Source: Deltaproteobacteria bacterium
GTDB taxonomy: Bacteria; Desulfobacterota; GWC2-55-46
NCBI GenBank assembly: GCA_015075075.1
Contig: JABTVA010000008.1
Location: 50,215 to 114,214 of the forward strand
Length of the DNA stretch: 64,000 nucleotides
Direction of reading: 5' to 3'
Positions 3,098 through 32,965 of this stretch are shown one piece after another; within the stretch, counting starts at the first letter, position 1; the number at the start of each line of letters is the position of its first letter. Under the pieces are notes generated by a model. That model was not told the origin of the DNA, searched no databases, and was given only the letters and a program-made list of their open reading frames with translations. The position numbers and the translations under genes are program-made.

Positions 3098-4609
3098 TTA
3101 TTCCCCGGAGACGGCCCCCCATGCCTCAAGGTCCTTGAGATACCGATAGGCCGCCGGGTCCCCGAGCTCGTGCGCCTTTTTCATGCTGAGATATGAGTTC
3201 CTCCCGTCGCCGAGGTGCATGTAGGCCTTGCCGAGGTCTATGTGCATCGAGGAATCGGAAGGGTCGAGATCCGCTGCCTTCCGGAAGTCTTCGAGGGCGT
3301 CCCCGTACCGGCCCGCGATGGCATGGGCCGTGCCGCGCCCCTTGAACCCCTGTGCGTTGTCCGGGTATAACGCTATCTGGCGGCCCCATAACGTGAGAGA
3401 GTCCTTCCAGACCGCCTGTTGCCTGAATGTCATGGCGGAGAAGATGGCCGAAACCATGAAGACGGCCAGCAGCACTGGGAAGAAGGCCTTCGCGCGCCTC
3501 CGGACCGCCCAACCTGCGCCTGCGGAGGCAAGCATCGCGAAGCCTATGCCGGGGATGTACATGAACCTGTCGGCGGCGGCGTGCATCCCGACCTGCAATA
3601 TGCCGATTATCGGAAGGAGAGTCATAAGGAAGTAGGCCCATACGGAAACACAGACCCTGCTCCACCTGCAAAGATAGACGGCGAGCGCGGTAATCGCCGA
3701 AAGCGCAAGGACGTAAACCGCGAAGAGCGTATCGAGGCCCGCGGGGAAATCGCGGGGATAGAGCGGGGCGAGGTTGACCGGGATAAGCGTTTTATAGATA
3801 TAAAAAAGATAGCCCCTGGCGGTGATGTGCAGGCGGCCCTCAAGCGGGAGCGCTTCCGCGGATATTATGACGCTGTCCACAGTATGAGACCAGACGTTCA
3901 GAAGCCCCGTTGCCATGCTCAACGCGAAGAAGGGGGCCTTCTCCAGCACGAGCCTCTTCCAACCGTCAGTCCTGGACCTCTCAAGGGGGTAGAAGTCGAG
4001 TATGAGTAGCACAAGAGGCATGGTGACGGTCATGGGTTTACTGAGAAGCGACAGGACGAAAAAGACGAGCGTAAGCGCGTAGGATAATGCCTTCCGGCCC
4101 CGTGCATAGCTCAGATAGGCGTGCAGGCCCAGGAGGAAGAAAAAGGCGTTAAGGACGTCCTTCCTTTCGCTCACCCATGCGACCGATTCGACCTTGAGCG
4201 GGTGGAGCCCGAAGAGGAGGCCCGCTGAAAGGGCGATTATGAAGAGCGCCTTCGGCCTGAGGCCGCCCCTTGCTGACGCGAGCCTCGTTGCCAGCAGGGC
4301 CACGAGGAAGGCGTTCGCGCCGTGGAGTATCGCATTTGAAAGGTGGTAGCCGAAAGGGTCGAGGCCCCAGAACGCGTAATCGAGCGAGAAGGAGAGGAGC
4401 GTAACCGGGATCCAGGCGCCGTTCGCGAACGAGGTGAAGACGGCCTCGAGGTTCAGGCCCCGGATAGCCGTGTTGTTATGGACGTACATGAGGTCGTCCC
4501 AGTTGACGAAATCGAACGAGAGGGAGGGAAGGTAGATGACGAAAGAGGCCAGGGCCGATATGAGTGCGGCAACGAGGACTATCTTCGGTTGTCTTCTGTT
4601 TTCATTCAT
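3098..4609 (-). CDS. GT-C-fold (PMT_2/TMTC-like, DUF1736-type) membrane protein with C-terminal TPR repeats, paralog 1
   Basis: 503 aa. Multi-TM N-domain with an 'FDFVNWDD' loop motif (DD/DE motif of PMT/TMTC-type glycosyltransferases). C-terminal soluble TPR repeats ('...GRYGDALEDFRKAADLDP...'). First of four tandem paralogs. Confidence 0.7.
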   Translation of the reverse strand: MNENRRQPKIVLVAALISALASFVIYLPSLSFDFVNWDDLMYVHNNTAIRGLNLEAVFTSFANGAWIPVTLLSFSLDYAFWGLDPFGYHLSNAILHGANAFLVALLATRLASARGGLRPKALFIIALSAGLLFGLHPLKVESVAWVSERKDVLNAFFFLLGLHAYLSYARGRKALSYALTLVFFVLSLLSKPMTVTMPLVLLILDFYPLERSRTDGWKRLVLEKAPFFALSMATGLLNVWSHTVDSVIISAEALPLEGRLHITARGYLFYIYKTLIPVNLAPLYPRDFPAGLDTLFAVYVLALSAITALAVYLCRWSRVCVSVWAYFLMTLLPIIGILQVGMHAAADRFMYIPGIGFAMLASAGAGWAVRRRAKAFFPVLLAVFMVSAIFSAMTFRQQAVWKDSLTLWGRQIALYPDNAQGFKGRGTAHAIAGRYGDALEDFRKAADLDPSDSSMHIDLGKAYMHLGDGRNSYLSMKKAHELGDPAAYRYLKDLEAWGAVSGE

Positions 4610-4635
4610 TTCCGGTCCTGATCATCGGGGCCAGC

Positions 4636-6441
4636 TCATTTACCCGGGCCCTGCGCTTCGAGGTCCTTCAGATACCTTGAAGCCGCCGGGTCCCCGAGGT
4701 CATGGGCCCGCTTCATGCTGAGGTACGAGTTTTCGCTGTCGCCCAGGTGCATGTAGGCCTTTCCGAGGTCTATGTGCGCCGAAGGGTCCGCGGGGTCGAG
4801 CAGGACGGCGTTCTTGAAGTCCTCGACCGCCTTCCCGTACTGGCCTGAGATGGCATGTGCAACGCCGCGGGCCCTGTAAGCGTCCTTGTTCCGGGGGTCC
4901 CCGTCCAGGACGAACGTGAGGTCCGCGATCCCCTCCTCGAACCTGCCGGCGTTTACAAGGGCGCCCCCGCGTTTCATATAGGCGTCGGTCGATACCGGGC
5001 CGAGCTCTATCGCCCGGTCCAGGTTTTCGATGGCAAGGTCGAATTTACCGAGGCTTATATACGCGTTGGCGCGGTTCATGAACCCGCTCGCCGTGTCCGG
5101 GGTGATCCTGCCAAGGTCCTCCATGGCGAGGTCGAGCCTCCCCTGGACGAGATAGGCGTTCCCCCGGTTTACATACCCGTATGGATGGTCCGGGAAGAGC
5201 CTTATCTGCTGGTTCCAGAGTGAGAAAGAGTCCTTCCATACGGATATCTGCTTGAGCGCAAGAATTGAGAGCAATGCCGAGGCCGCGATAATTACAGCCA
5301 GGACCGGCGCGAACGCGCCCTTTTTCCTTTCCGCCAGCCTCCCGGCCCCTGCCGCGACGAGCACGGCGATCCCCATGCCAGGGATATATGTGTACCTGTC
5401 AGCCGCGGCCTGCATCCCCACCTGCACGAGCCCTATTACCGGGATTAGCGTTATCACGAAGTAGGCCCAGACCGCGATGAAGGCCCAGCTCCGCCTCCGA
5501 AGTAAAATCGCGAGCGCGGTCAGGGCCGAAAGCGCGAGCACATAGAGGGCGAAAAGGCCAGGTCCCATAGCGAAGTCGCGGGGGTATACAGGCGCAAGAT
5601 TGACCGGCACGAGGGTCTTGTAGATATAGAAGAGATAGCCCCGGGCCGCGATATGGAGACGGCTCCCGAAGGCAAGCTCTTCTGCCGGGACCATTGCCAT
5701 GGTCTGGGACCACATGGTAGCGAGCACGGCTGCCAGGCTCAATATGATAAAAGGGAGCTTCTCTATTATTAGCCTTTTCCAGCCGTCTTTTCTATGCCTC
5801 CCGAGCGGATACAGGTCGAGTATCAATAAAACCAGCGGCATGGTTACGGTCATGGGCTTGCTGAGGAGCGATAAAACAAAAAAGACGAGCGTCAAAACAT
5901 ATGAGGAAGCCTTTTTGGTTTTGGCGTAGCCGAGATAGGAAAGGACACCCAGGAGGAAAAAGAAGGCGTTAAGGACGTCCTTCCTTTCGCTTATCCAGGC
6001 AACCGACTCTACCCTGAGGGGATGGAGCCCGAATAGGAGCCCGGCTGAAATGGCTATTATGAAGAGCGCCTTTGCATTCGAGCCCCTTGTCCCCGCGAGC
6101 CTTGCCGCGAGCAGGGCCACAAGGAAAACGTTAGCCGCGTGGAGCGCCGAGTTCGTCAGGTGATAGCCCAATGGGTTAAGCCCCCAGAGGGCGTAATCGA
6201 GAGAGAGGGATAGGAACGTTACAGGGACCCACGTCCCGAGGATGACGGATGTAAAGGCCCACTTGAGGCCGGGCCCCTGCAATCGGGGGTTCTCATAGAC
6301 GTAGAGCTGGTCGTCCCAGTTTACGAAATCGAAGCCGAGGGAAGGGAGATAGAGCGCGAATGCGGCTATGGCCGATAAGAGGGCCGCGATGAGGATTATG
6401 TTTTCTGGTTTGCGGTTATCCGGCATACCGGAACGGTCCAT
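4636..6441 (-). CDS. GT-C-fold (PMT_2/TMTC-like) membrane protein with C-terminal TPR repeats, paralog 2
   Basis: 601 aa. Same architecture as paralog 1 ('FDFVNWDD' loop, about 11 TM helices, longer TPR domain). Confidence 0.7.
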   Translation of the reverse strand: MDRSGMPDNRKPENIILIAALLSAIAAFALYLPSLGFDFVNWDDQLYVYENPRLQGPGLKWAFTSVILGTWVPVTFLSLSLDYALWGLNPLGYHLTNSALHAANVFLVALLAARLAGTRGSNAKALFIIAISAGLLFGLHPLRVESVAWISERKDVLNAFFFLLGVLSYLGYAKTKKASSYVLTLVFFVLSLLSKPMTVTMPLVLLILDLYPLGRHRKDGWKRLIIEKLPFIILSLAAVLATMWSQTMAMVPAEELAFGSRLHIAARGYLFYIYKTLVPVNLAPVYPRDFAMGPGLFALYVLALSALTALAILLRRRSWAFIAVWAYFVITLIPVIGLVQVGMQAAADRYTYIPGMGIAVLVAAGAGRLAERKKGAFAPVLAVIIAASALLSILALKQISVWKDSFSLWNQQIRLFPDHPYGYVNRGNAYLVQGRLDLAMEDLGRITPDTASGFMNRANAYISLGKFDLAIENLDRAIELGPVSTDAYMKRGGALVNAGRFEEGIADLTFVLDGDPRNKDAYRARGVAHAISGQYGKAVEDFKNAVLLDPADPSAHIDLGKAYMHLGDSENSYLSMKRAHDLGDPAASRYLKDLEAQGPGK

Positions 6442-6671
6442 ATGAAGATTGTTGAAGGTTTTCAGGAGTTTACCACCGGGGCCCGCCGGTTTGCAAGCCG
6501 ATATTACCTTTGTCCGGCGCCCCTGGCCTCAAGGTCCGAAATGTATCTGGAGGCAGAAGTGTCGCCGAGCTCAAGCGCCTTTCTCATGCTGGCGTATGAT
6601 CTCTCGAAATTGCCGAGGTGCATATATACCTTGCCGAGGTCAATGTGCGCGGACGGGTCCGAGGGGTCGAG
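6371..6671. repeat. Near-identical ~300-bp segmental duplication, copy A (gene 3 end / intergenic / gene 2 start)
   Basis: Direct sequence comparison. Positions 6380-6612 match 8170-8402 exactly, with scattered mismatches beyond. Confidence 0.9.
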
Positions 6672-8228
6672 CGCAATCGCCTTCTGGAAGTCTTTAAGCG
6701 CATCGACGTAACGGCCTGCAAGGGCGTATGCCGTGCCGCGCGCCTTGTATACGGCCTTGCTTTCAGGGTCCGAATCCACTAACACGGTGAGGTCGGCGAT
6801 CCCTTTATCGAGCCTGCCCGCATTTACGAGGGCTACTCCGCGATTGAAATATATCTCGTTTATGAACGAAGGATGGAGGCTTACGCTCTTGTCCAGGTCT
6901 TTGATGGCATCTTCGTACATTCCCTTGGCAAGGTACACGGCGCCGCGGTTTACGTACCCGTATGCATAATCCGGGAAGAGCCTGACCTGATGGCTCCAGA
7001 GGGACAGTGAGTCCTTCCATACTCCAGCCTGCCCGAGCGTAGTGAAAGAGAGAAGGGCCGAGGCCGCTACCACTGAAGCCAGGACCGGCGCGAACGCGCT
7101 CCGGTTCTTTCCCGCGGCCCACCCTGCCCCTGCCGCAGCCAGTACCGCGAGGCCCATCCCCGGAATATAGGTGTATCTGTCGGCCGCGGCCTGCATCCCG
7201 ACCTGCAAAAACCCTATTACCGGGAGGAGCGTTACCGCAAAATAGGCCCAAACGGCTATGAAAACCCCGCTCCGCCTCCTGAGATAGACGGCGAGCGCCG
7301 TAATCGCAAGGAGCGCGAGGGCATAGGCCGCAAAGTGAAGGTTAAGGCCGGTTTGGAAATTCCGCGGGTAAAGTGGGGCGAGGTCCATGGGCGCAAGGGT
7401 CTTGTAGATATAAAAGAGGTAGCCTCTTTCCGCGACATGGAGCCGTCCGCTAAAGACGAGCTCCTGGACCGTGACCATTGCCTTGCTCTGCGACCAGACG
7501 GTGATAAGCCCGGTCGCGAGGCTCAGCATGAAGAAAGGGAGCTTCTCGATAACGGGCCTCGTCCAGCCTTCTTTCCTGAACCTGTCGAATGGGTAGAAGT
7601 CGAGTATCAGGAGCACGAGCGGCATGGTGACGGTCATGGGCTTACTGAGAAGCGAGAGGACGAAAAAGACAAGCGCCAATATATACGACGAGGCTTTTTT
7701 GTGCTTGGCGTAGCCGAGATAGGAAAGGATACCCAGGAGGAAAAAGAACGCGTTCAGGACGTCCTTTCTTTCACTTATCCAGACCACGGACTCTACCCTT
7801 AGCGGATGGAGCCCGAAGAGGAGCCCGGCTGAAAGGGCGATTAAAAATAGCCCCCGTGCCCCGAAGCCGCCTCTTGTCCCCGCGAGCCTCGCGCCGAGCA
7901 AGGCGACAAGAAAGACGTTTGCCGCATGGAGTGCCGAGTTCGTGAGGTGGTATCCCAGCGGGTTCAGTCCCCATATGGCGTAATCGAGCGTGAAGGAGAG
8001 GAAAGTTACTGGCACCCATGTCCCGACCACGACCGAGGTAAAGGCCTGTTTGAGATCCAGGCCCCGGATATCCGGGTTCCCGGTCACGTAGGAAGGGTCG
8101 TCCAGGTCCACGAACTCGAAACCGAGGGAAGGCAGATAGACCGCGAACGAAGCCACGGCCGATAGGAGGGCCGCGATGAGGATTATGTTTTCTGGTTTGC
8201 GGTTATCCGGCATACCGGAACGGTCCAT
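6504..8228 (-). CDS. GT-C-fold (PMT_2/TMTC-like) membrane protein with C-terminal TPR repeats, paralog 3
   Basis: 574 aa. N-terminus identical to paralog 2 ('MDRSGMPDNRKPENIILIAALLSA'). C-terminus identical to paralog 4 ('...SYASMRKALELGDTSASRYISDLEARGAGQR'). Confidence 0.7.
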   Translation of the reverse strand: MDRSGMPDNRKPENIILIAALLSAVASFAVYLPSLGFEFVDLDDPSYVTGNPDIRGLDLKQAFTSVVVGTWVPVTFLSFTLDYAIWGLNPLGYHLTNSALHAANVFLVALLGARLAGTRGGFGARGLFLIALSAGLLFGLHPLRVESVVWISERKDVLNAFFFLLGILSYLGYAKHKKASSYILALVFFVLSLLSKPMTVTMPLVLLILDFYPFDRFRKEGWTRPVIEKLPFFMLSLATGLITVWSQSKAMVTVQELVFSGRLHVAERGYLFYIYKTLAPMDLAPLYPRNFQTGLNLHFAAYALALLAITALAVYLRRRSGVFIAVWAYFAVTLLPVIGFLQVGMQAAADRYTYIPGMGLAVLAAAGAGWAAGKNRSAFAPVLASVVAASALLSFTTLGQAGVWKDSLSLWSHQVRLFPDYAYGYVNRGAVYLAKGMYEDAIKDLDKSVSLHPSFINEIYFNRGVALVNAGRLDKGIADLTVLVDSDPESKAVYKARGTAYALAGRYVDALKDFQKAIALDPSDPSAHIDLGKVYMHLGNFERSYASMRKALELGDTSASRYISDLEARGAGQR

Positions 8229-8461
8229 ATGAAGATTGTTGAAGGTTTTCAGGAGTTTACCACCGGGGCCCGCCGGTTTGCAAGCCGATATTACCTTTGT
8301 CCGGCGCCCCTGGCCTCAAGGTCCGAAATGTATCTGGAGGCAGAAGTGTCGCCGAGCTCAAGCGCCTTTCTCATGCTGGCGTATGATCTTTCGAAATTGC
8401 CGAGGTGCATATATACCTTGCCGAGGTCTATGTGCGCCGAAGGGTCTCCGGGGTCGAGCTC
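8161..8461. repeat. Near-identical ~300-bp segmental duplication, copy B (gene 4 end / intergenic / gene 3 start)
   Basis: See copy A. Includes the identical 62-bp intergenic spacer. Confidence 0.9.
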
Positions 8462-10090
8462 CGCTGCCTTCAGGAAGTCTTCGAGCGCCTCCCCGTATTG
8501 GCCGGAAATGGCGTATGCGGTGCCGCGCGCCCTGAATATGGCCTTGTTCCCCGGGTCTGAATCGAGGACTACAGTAAAATCCGAGATACCTTCCCTGAAC
8601 CTGCCGGCGTTTACGAGGGCGCTCCCGCGGCTTGAGTACGCAGGCAATGTGTTCGGCTCCAGCTCTATGGCCTTATCGAGGTCCGGGATGGCCAGGTCGA
8701 ACCTGCCGAGGGTCAAATAGGCGTTCCCGCGGTTAAAGTACCCGTGGCCGCTTTCAGGAGACATCTTACGGAGGTCCTCTATCGCGGATTCGTTCATGCC
8801 AAGCGCAACATAAGCGGCGCTCCGGTTCACATACCCCTGGCTGTGGGACGGGAAGACCTCTATCTGCCGGCTCCAGAGGGAGACCGGATTTTTCCAGATC
8901 ATTTCCTGCTTGAAGGCGAAAAAGGAGAGTAGCCCCGATGCCGCCAAAACCAGCGCCAAAACGGCCGGGAGACTTTTGCTATTCCTTTTCACAATCCAGC
9001 CTGCCGCGGCGGAAACGAGAATCGCCAGTCCGATGGCCGGAATATATGTATACCTGTCGGCAGCCGCCTGCCTTCCTACCTGCATGAGGCCTATGACAGG
9101 GAGCAGCGTGACCGCGTAGCAGGCCCATGCGGAAATAAAGGCCTTGCTCCATCTACGAAGGTAAAGGGCGAGAATGGTTATGGCTGCAAGCGCCGCGAGG
9201 TAAAGGACCGCCGAAAGGTTAAGGCCTGAGGCGAAGTCGCGGGGGTAGAGGGGCGCAAGGCCGGCCGGGATGACCGACTTGTAAATATAGAATAGATACC
9301 CCCTCGCCGCGATATGGATCCGGTCGGCGAACGGGAGCGCCTCCGGCGGCATCACGGCCTTTCCCTGCGACCAGATGGTCATTAGCCCGGCTGCCAGGCT
9401 CAGCATTAAAAATGGGAGTTTTTCAATTAGCGGCCTCTTCCACCCTTCCCTCTTGAGCCTTTCAAGAGGATAGTAGTCTAATATGAGAAGCACGAGCGGC
9501 ATGGTGACCGTCATGGGCTTACTTAGAAGTGAAAGGACGAAAAGGACGAGCGTCAATACATAGGAGGATGCCTTTTTGTTTTCAGCATACCCGAGATAGG
9601 CGTGGAGGCCGAGGAGAAAGAAGAAGGCGTTCAGGACGTCCTTTCTTTCGCTGACCCATGCCACTGACTCGGCCCTTAGAGGGTGTAGTCCGAAAAGGAG
9701 CCCGGCCGAGAGGGCCATGAGGAATAGCCCGCCTGCCCCGAGACCGCCCCTTCTGCCGGCGAGCCTCGCGGCCAGGAAGGCCACGAGAAAGACGTTGGCG
9801 GAGTGGAGTATCGTGTTCGTGAGGTGGTACCCCAGCGGGTCCAGCCCCCATACGGCGTAATCGAGGGCGAATGACAGGAACGTGAGCGGTATCCAGGTGC
9901 CTACCACGACAGCCGTGAAGGCCCATTTGAGGTCAATGCCCTGGATATCAGGGTTCTCGGATACGTACGCGGGGTCGTCCCAGTCAACGAAATCGAAGCC
10001 CAGGGAAGGGAGATAGAGCGCGAATGCGGCTATAGCGGATATGAGGGCCGCGAGGAAAATAAGTTTAAAAGAATAATCTCTTTCCGGCAT
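8291..10090 (-). CDS. GT-C-fold (PMT_2/TMTC-like) membrane protein with C-terminal TPR repeats, paralog 4
   Basis: 599 aa, same architecture ('FDFVDWDD'). Confidence 0.7.
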   Translation of the reverse strand: MPERDYSFKLIFLAALISAIAAFALYLPSLGFDFVDWDDPAYVSENPDIQGIDLKWAFTAVVVGTWIPLTFLSFALDYAVWGLDPLGYHLTNTILHSANVFLVAFLAARLAGRRGGLGAGGLFLMALSAGLLFGLHPLRAESVAWVSERKDVLNAFFFLLGLHAYLGYAENKKASSYVLTLVLFVLSLLSKPMTVTMPLVLLILDYYPLERLKREGWKRPLIEKLPFLMLSLAAGLMTIWSQGKAVMPPEALPFADRIHIAARGYLFYIYKSVIPAGLAPLYPRDFASGLNLSAVLYLAALAAITILALYLRRWSKAFISAWACYAVTLLPVIGLMQVGRQAAADRYTYIPAIGLAILVSAAAGWIVKRNSKSLPAVLALVLAASGLLSFFAFKQEMIWKNPVSLWSRQIEVFPSHSQGYVNRSAAYVALGMNESAIEDLRKMSPESGHGYFNRGNAYLTLGRFDLAIPDLDKAIELEPNTLPAYSSRGSALVNAGRFREGISDFTVVLDSDPGNKAIFRARGTAYAISGQYGEALEDFLKAAELDPGDPSAHIDLGKVYMHLGNFERSYASMRKALELGDTSASRYISDLEARGAGQR

Positions 10091-10344
10091 TCCTTTTCCC
10101 AGGCTCTTTGCAATAAAGAGCGGCCCTTTCCGGCTGGACTGCTTGCGCGTTAACCGCTTGCAAGCTTTAAGGAAATTGACTCGAGTTCGTCCGTTTAGTC
10201 AGCCAGTATACCATTGCGGGGTTTTGGTTTGCAAGGGTGCCGCGGCCCGGGATTTTTTTGTGCTATTAGGGCGTTTCGCATGATATATTATGACGATTAA
10301 GGACCGAGGAGAGACTCCGCCCCGGCTGGGGCGCGCATTCGCCT

Positions 10345-32218: not shown

Positions 32219-32965
32219 TTGAAGAGCCGTAAGAGGCAGGGCGGGATATCCATCGTCATCCCCGTGTATAACGAGGGCGGCAACATCAGGGCGGCCCTGG
32301 CCGAGATAAAGGCCAAGGTCAGGACCCCGCACAATGTCCTCATAGTCTACGATTTCGAGGAGGACAATACCCTCCCGGTCGTAAGGGAGATGGCGGCCAG
32401 GGGCGAGGTCGCCGGGCTCGCCCTTGTAAGGAACAAGTACGGCAGGGGCGTCTTGAACGCCATAAAGACCGGTTTCGAGAGCGCGGATAGGGAGGCGGTC
32501 CTGGTCGTAATGGCCGACCTTTCCGACGACCTCGCGGTGGTCGACGGGATGTACGCGAAACTAAAGGCCGGCTACGGCGTCGTCTGCGGCTCGCGCTACA
32601 TGAAAGGCGGAAGGCAGATAGGCGGCCCCTTCCTCAAGAAGGCCCTTTCAAGGACAGCCGGGCTTACCCTTCACCTCATCGCCGGCATCCCCACCCACGA
32701 CGCCACGAACAGCTTCAAGATGTATTCGAAAGAGCTCCTTGATAACATTGAAATAGAAAGCACCGGCGGCTTCGAGCTCGGGATGGAACTGGTCATAAAG
32801 GCCCATTTCAAGGGCTACGGCGTAACCGAGGTCCCTTCCACCTGGAAAGACAGGGTGGAGGGCGAGTCCAGGTTCATGCTCATGAAATGGCTCCCGAGAT
32901 ACCTGCACTGGTACTTCTTCGCCTTCAGGAACGCGGCCTTCGGGAAGAGGCCGGGGAAGGCGTAA
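32219..32965 (+). CDS. GT2 polyprenyl-phosphate glycosyltransferase (DPM1/ArnC/GtrB-like)
   Basis: 'ISIVIPVYNEGGNI' start motif, a DxD region 'VVMADLSDD', and a C-terminal amphipathic region. The track ORF uses a TTG start; the true start is uncertain. Confidence 0.75.
   Translation: MKSRKRQGGISIVIPVYNEGGNIRAALAEIKAKVRTPHNVLIVYDFEEDNTLPVVREMAARGEVAGLALVRNKYGRGVLNAIKTGFESADREAVLVVMADLSDDLAVVDGMYAKLKAGYGVVCGSRYMKGGRQIGGPFLKKALSRTAGLTLHLIAGIPTHDATNSFKMYSKELLDNIEIESTGGFELGMELVIKAHFKGYGVTEVPSTWKDRVEGESRFMLMKWLPRYLHWYFFAFRNAAFGKRPGKA

Follow-up and report, generated by a model that had tools for sequence, protein, structure and literature searches.

TMTC1-4 (CAZy family GT105) are Dol-P-Man-dependent protein O-mannosyltransferases of cadherins. 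In animals they are of medical importance, with links to brain malformation and deafness. In bacteria, TfpW is a pilin D-arabinofuranosyl transferase. Cadherins have been described as proteins that TMTCs modify (PMC7801869). TMEM260 (GT117) is a further O-mannosyltransferase, selective for particular proteins; it joins a GT-C domain of 11 TM helices to TPR-like repeats at its C-terminus, and remote homologs occur in bacteria (PMC10214176). TfpW of P. aeruginosa, a GT-C protein with 11 TM helices, a DDX motif and a periplasmic TPR domain, O-glycosylates pilin with a polyprenyl-phosphate sugar as the donor (bioRxiv 10.1101/2020.04.19.049825). Here we compare these systems with a tandem array of four genes, g1-g4, in a 64-kb stretch of DNA, hereafter the window.

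Four paralogous genes in a tandem array

The initial annotation described four co-oriented genes of 500-600 aa, each encoding a polytopic domain followed by C-terminal TPRs, and our analysis agrees on both points. The ORF listing of positions 3098-10090 contains exactly four long ORFs, all on the minus strand: g4 (8291-10090, 599 aa), g3 (6504-8228, 574 aa), g2 (4636-6441, 601 aa) and g1 (3098-4609, 503 aa). The gaps g1/g2, g2/g3 and g3/g4 are 26, 62 and 62 nt, respectively. In L083, an assembly with 99.98% identity, NCBI places the starts of g2 and g3 at Met6, which gives proteins of 596 and 569 aa. Within the array, ORFs on the plus strand (for example, 3419-4009 and 7335-7802) are shadow ORFs of the genes on the opposite strand.

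All four proteins share a polytopic domain of ~410 aa, followed by C-terminal TPRs with strong Pfam matches. The GT-C (TMTC-like) domain of g4 covers aa 1-410 (8861-10090, minus strand) and is followed by ~5-6 TPRs (8291-8860); the corresponding domains lie at 6984-8228 and 6504-6983 in g3, at 5203-6441 and 4636-5202 in g2, and at 3374-4609 and 3098-3373 in g1, where the TPR domain is short. The proteins are clearly paralogs, as a family profile matched each of them with scores far above chance (E 1e-170 to 1e-180) and their N-domains are pairwise 61-76% identical. The TPR domains had been described as the most divergent parts. They do differ in repeat number, as g1 has ~3 and g3 ~1 fewer repeats than g2 and g4, but by substitution they are not more diverged than the N-domains, with 56-71% identity in shared columns.

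A sigma-70-like sequence upstream of g4 (10205-10234, minus strand), a consensus match with 9/12 positions and an extended -10 TG, is a candidate promoter of a four-gene operon. The 255-nt intergenic region that contains it is divergent, with a gene annotated in L083 as a PlsC-type acyltransferase on the other side. The neighbors of the array are housekeeping genes for SSB, a U32 peptidase, the PlsC-like acyltransferase and RNase J, and no GT2, flippase or obvious client gene adjoining the array was seen in the window.

Relation of the membrane domain to TMTC

The membrane domain is predicted to have 11 TM helices (AF2 helices) in an N-in, C-out orientation, with a K+R density of 0.28 in the predicted cytoplasmic loops and 0.07 in the periplasmic loops. 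On the basis of helix order and the positive-inside rule, the DD motif is predicted to be periplasmic, as is the TPR domain. The motif lies in loop EL1 and reads FDFVDWDD in g4 (aa 32-39, 9974-9997), FEFVDLDD in g3 (8097-8120) and FDFVNWDD in g2 (6310-6333) and g1 (4493-4516), all on the minus strand. The loop proposed initially, FDFV(N/D)WDD, is therefore found in g1, g2 and g4, but not in g3, and only its DD pair (D38, D39) is invariant, both among g1-g4 and across 65 family members. The pair is located 7-8 residues past TM1 and aligns with the DD of TMTC motif M1. In this conservation set of 65 homologs (~40% identity), the conserved polar residues D38-D39, H89, H136, E141, E148-R149-K150-D151, K191 and D345-R346-Y349 are predicted to cluster on the side facing the periplasm, where loops EL1-EL5 account for 25 of the 51 invariant residues.

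These features, a polytopic domain with the GT-C core fold and an acidic DD in the first extracytoplasmic loop, place the proteins in the GT-C superfamily. The GT-C fold that the initial annotation anticipated is upheld, and the periplasmic position of the DD motif is supported in prediction by the AF2 helix order and the charge bias. The top structural match was Pmt4. Identity to the PMT (GT39) enzymes of fungi and actinobacteria is just 10-11% in the structural alignment, and g1-g4 lack the hallmarks of that family: neither PMT nor PMT_2 HMMs matched them, and they have no MIR beta-trefoil domain, the TPRs being located at the C-terminus instead.

Of the HMMs that had been suggested for confirming the domains, those for TPR matched, while PMT_2 and DUF1736 did not match g1-g4 at E<=10. 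Among relatives, PMT_2 matched just 3/25 and 10/65. DUF1736 (PF08409), which in TMTC covers the TM7-TM8 loop, matched none of 25 family N-domains scanned alone and was absent from the 25 most-matched families of the 65 full-length relatives. Scans of the N-domains with NCBIfam at E<=1 and Pfam at E<=10 gave no match, nor did searches of all PDB sequences with phmmer and with a profile built from 25 sequences, suggesting that, as far as these searches reach, TMTC and its close relatives lack a solved structure.

The relation to TMTC was detected by profile comparison. An hhalign comparison of 25 bacterial N-domains with nine TMTCs gave a probability of 99.86 and E 2.4e-31 over 380 aligned columns, and the bacterial HMM scored 84-121 bits against TMTC1-4 of human, fly and fish. 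An ArnT control gave a probability of 0.8%, and ArnT is not detectable by sequence. These results indicate that g1-g4 have a GT-C fold and belong to the TMTC (CAZy GT105-type) family, within its bacterial branch. As in TMTC1-4, the 11-TM GT-C domain is N-in/C-out and is followed by TPRs on the non-cytoplasmic side, and the homology extends over the whole membrane domain. Shared elements include the DD in EL1, [WY]-x-P-L-T...Y-H-L-x-N, H-P-x-x-x-E, R-x-D-[VL]-L, K-x-x-x-x-T, P-x-x-x-[NG]-L and [ED]-R-x-x-Y-x-P. The 11 TM helices and C-terminal TPR-like repeats are also a likeness to TMEM260.

The TMTC motifs M1 (DD), M3 (RxD) and M7 ([DE]RxxY) are invariant, as are the M4 Lys and the second Pro of M6, and the M4 Thr is conserved too. 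Since the invariant motifs are present in all four paralogs, none of them looks like a pseudoenzyme. The complete M1-M7 set (PMC7801869) is not retained, however: the M4 Glu is replaced by Pro192 (at least 90% conserved), and the M5 Asp-Trp and M2 His-Lys are absent. The metal ligands proposed for TMTC, the M4 Glu and M5 Asp (PMC7801869), are accordingly not conserved in the bacterial family. The bacterial proteins also differ from TMTC1-4 in a diverged EL4/DUF1736 segment, from which "FDNPA" and "DW" are missing, in a shorter TPR domain (~2-6 repeats) and in the arrangement of their genes in a tandem operon.

Architectures that join Wzy_C to TPRs occur in bacteria, and g1-g4 might on that ground be O-antigen ligases or polymerases of the Wzy_C/WaaL type with TPR tails. 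We consider this barely conceivable. It is refuted by the structural match to Pmt4 and the hhalign alignment to the TMTCs, and neither a Wzy_C HMM match nor a WaaL-like fold was found; the GT-C reading of the initial annotation is supported. Alternatively, the proteins could be non-catalytic, membrane-anchored TPR scaffolds or chaperones with a leftover GT-C-like domain, as public annotation names them only "tetratricopeptide repeat protein" and the membrane domain is unmatched by curated HMMs. This is highly unlikely, because DD, RxD, Lys191 and D-R-x-x-Y are invariant in the 65 homologs and all four paralogs, conservation is concentrated in the periplasmic loops, and relatives show operonic coupling to a polyprenyl-phosphate GT2.

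The initial statement that bacterial counterparts are essentially uncharacterised overlooks TfpW, which has been characterised and has the same architecture. Compared by description, g1-g4 match the GT-C, 11 TM, DDX and periplasmic TPR architecture of TfpW (bioRxiv 10.1101/2020.04.19.049825). In addition, its Y-x6-P...P motif in a late periplasmic loop resembles the invariant Y268-x6-P275...P280/P283 of this family. Unlike tfpW, which is located directly downstream of pilA, the array adjoins the SSB and acyltransferase genes. An orphan PilB-like ATPase is encoded 4 kb from the array. Pilin glycosylation at this locus, which TfpW and this ATPase had brought to mind, was dropped as a candidate, since the type IV pilin motif G-[FM..]-[TS]-L-[IL]-E is absent from all six frames of the 64-kb window.

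Proposed function, acceptor and donor

We infer that g1-g4 are, on balance, probably catalytically active inner-membrane GT-C enzymes that would transfer a sugar from a polyprenyl-phosphate donor to periplasmic acceptors, most likely proteins, chosen by the TPR domains. In the mechanism that we propose, a cytoplasmic DPMS/ArnC-type GT2 would place a single sugar on undecaprenyl phosphate, and the lipid-linked sugar would then be flipped across the membrane. In contrast to TMTC1-4, these bacterial enzymes would use undecaprenyl and not dolichyl phosphate as the carrier. The GT-C domain would pass the sugar to the acceptor; in this step, the first Asp of the DD pair would serve as the base, and the phosphate would be held by K191 and R346. 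The TPR domain may present the acceptor, for which Ser/Thr residues on proteins of the periplasm or envelope are the likeliest candidates, by analogy with TMTC1-4, TMEM260 and TfpW. The paralogs may share one common donor and serve different clients through TPR domains of differing length.

The same fold and donor chemistry could instead serve a non-protein acceptor, such as LPS/lipid A, peptidoglycan or exopolysaccharide, with the TPR domain docking onto envelope or export machinery. There is precedent for this, since many bacterial GT-C enzymes, including ArnT, AftB and those of the three-component glycan-modification systems, act on lipids or glycans and not on proteins (PMC11127046). Nevertheless, the nearest relatives of known function (TMTC1-4) and the top structural match (Pmt4) act on proteins, ArnT is undetectable by sequence, and neither here nor in syntenic relatives is the array flanked by a polysaccharide or LPS cluster. 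We therefore regard a glycan or lipid acceptor as unlikely, yet weighty enough to be kept in mind, and favor protein acceptors.

A family-level tie to polyprenyl-phosphate GT2 enzymes was observed in related loci. Up to 1 kb from family genes, DPMS/ArnC-like GT2 genes had a density of 6.7 per 100 kb, compared with 0.7-1.7 at distances of 1-10 kb, a 4-10 fold enrichment. These adjacent genes often overlapped or were on the same strand as the family genes, and the best solved relatives of their products were ArnC, DPMS and GtrB; just ~10% of the related loci have such an adjacent GT2. In one of them (L077), a single GT2 gene precedes four tandem copies; L006 is another relative with an operonic GT2. 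Two T9SS-tailed surface proteins are encoded just upstream of the operon at that locus. In the window, a distant sugar cluster, located at 28-34 kb, had been put forward as a possible donor supplier of the array. A DPMS-like GT2 gene (32219-32965) is indeed present there, but so is a PMT_2-type GT-C of its own, and relatives of this GT-C are sometimes fused to a GT2. The cluster is thus self-sufficient, and we rejected it as a dedicated donor source of the array.

Probable copy-number change and distribution of the family

The gene g3 is flanked by two direct repeats of 224 nt, which are 224/224 identical and lose identity at both borders. Each copy spans a 62-nt spacer together with the final 99 nt of the gene before it and the initial 63 nt of the gene after it; these genes are g4 and g3 for copy A (8166-8389), and g3 and g2 for copy B (6379-6602). 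In the related genome L081, the array has three genes, with g2 and g1 orthologs of 90% and 91% identity, respectively, and g3 is absent; g3 is therefore an extra copy relative to L081. The perfect repeats suggest that the array gains or loses copies by recombination at conserved gene ends. A plain recent g2/g4 chimera, generated by unequal crossing-over, would fit the gene order and junctions. However, the g3 core is just 64-76% identical to its neighbors g2 and g4 while its flanks are 100% identical, and a simple recent duplication was rejected. Thus, g3 may be an old paralog whose ends were converted, in which case L081 would have lost it through recombination between the repeats; alternatively, it may have been imported as a cassette.

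The same perfect repeats around a divergent core might also indicate an assembly artefact, in which strain variants were mis-joined through the common 224-nt junction and the true array has three genes. The source is a metagenome-assembled genome, and the three genes of its close relative L081 are in line with such an error. We consider it very improbable, since an independent assembly (L083, GCA_048500075.1, a 182.6-kb contig), found by an exact-sequence match of g2, shows the same four-gene order at 99.98% identity, and a 119-kb contig is on record with a g3-type protein as well. Moreover, a strain-variant bubble is not normally assembled in tandem with both flanks intact. In L083, the 3' end of g3 carries a 1-nt indel; no record was retrieved for the exact sequences of g3 (574 aa) and P0002. 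Our favored reading of g3 remains a genuine fourth gene.

The bacterial family comprises 87,432 clusters at 50% identity and is distributed among Thermodesulfobacteriota, Nitrospirota, Planctomycetota, Verrucomicrobiota, Acidobacteriota and other phyla. Tandem arrays are typical, with at least two copies in 33/80 related loci. Among 72,556 plasmids, tblastn with the N-domain as the query found none that matched. The family is very large, often in tandem and almost unstudied, and the locus at 3098-10090 is therefore a typical, unexceptional member of an under-explored family.

Our study also raises the tentative possibility, which we hold to be open to considerable doubt, that bacteria possess a widespread, unrecognised TMTC-type system of periplasmic protein O-glycosylation. 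In such a system, one polyprenyl-phosphate sugar donor would serve several TPR-guided paralogs for different folded protein clients, and cassette-like recombination at gene ends, which the 224-nt repeats suggest, would reshuffle the sets of paralogs. Because the putative metal ligands of TMTC are replaced here, the mechanism would then be a metal-independent variant. At present, no Pfam or NCBIfam model recognises the membrane domain of g1-g4, and the bacterial branch is annotated as "TPR repeat protein" only. Identification of the acceptors would add a general envelope-modification pathway to many phyla, provide tractable bacterial models for TMTC structure and mechanism, and allow tens of thousands of genes to be reannotated correctly.

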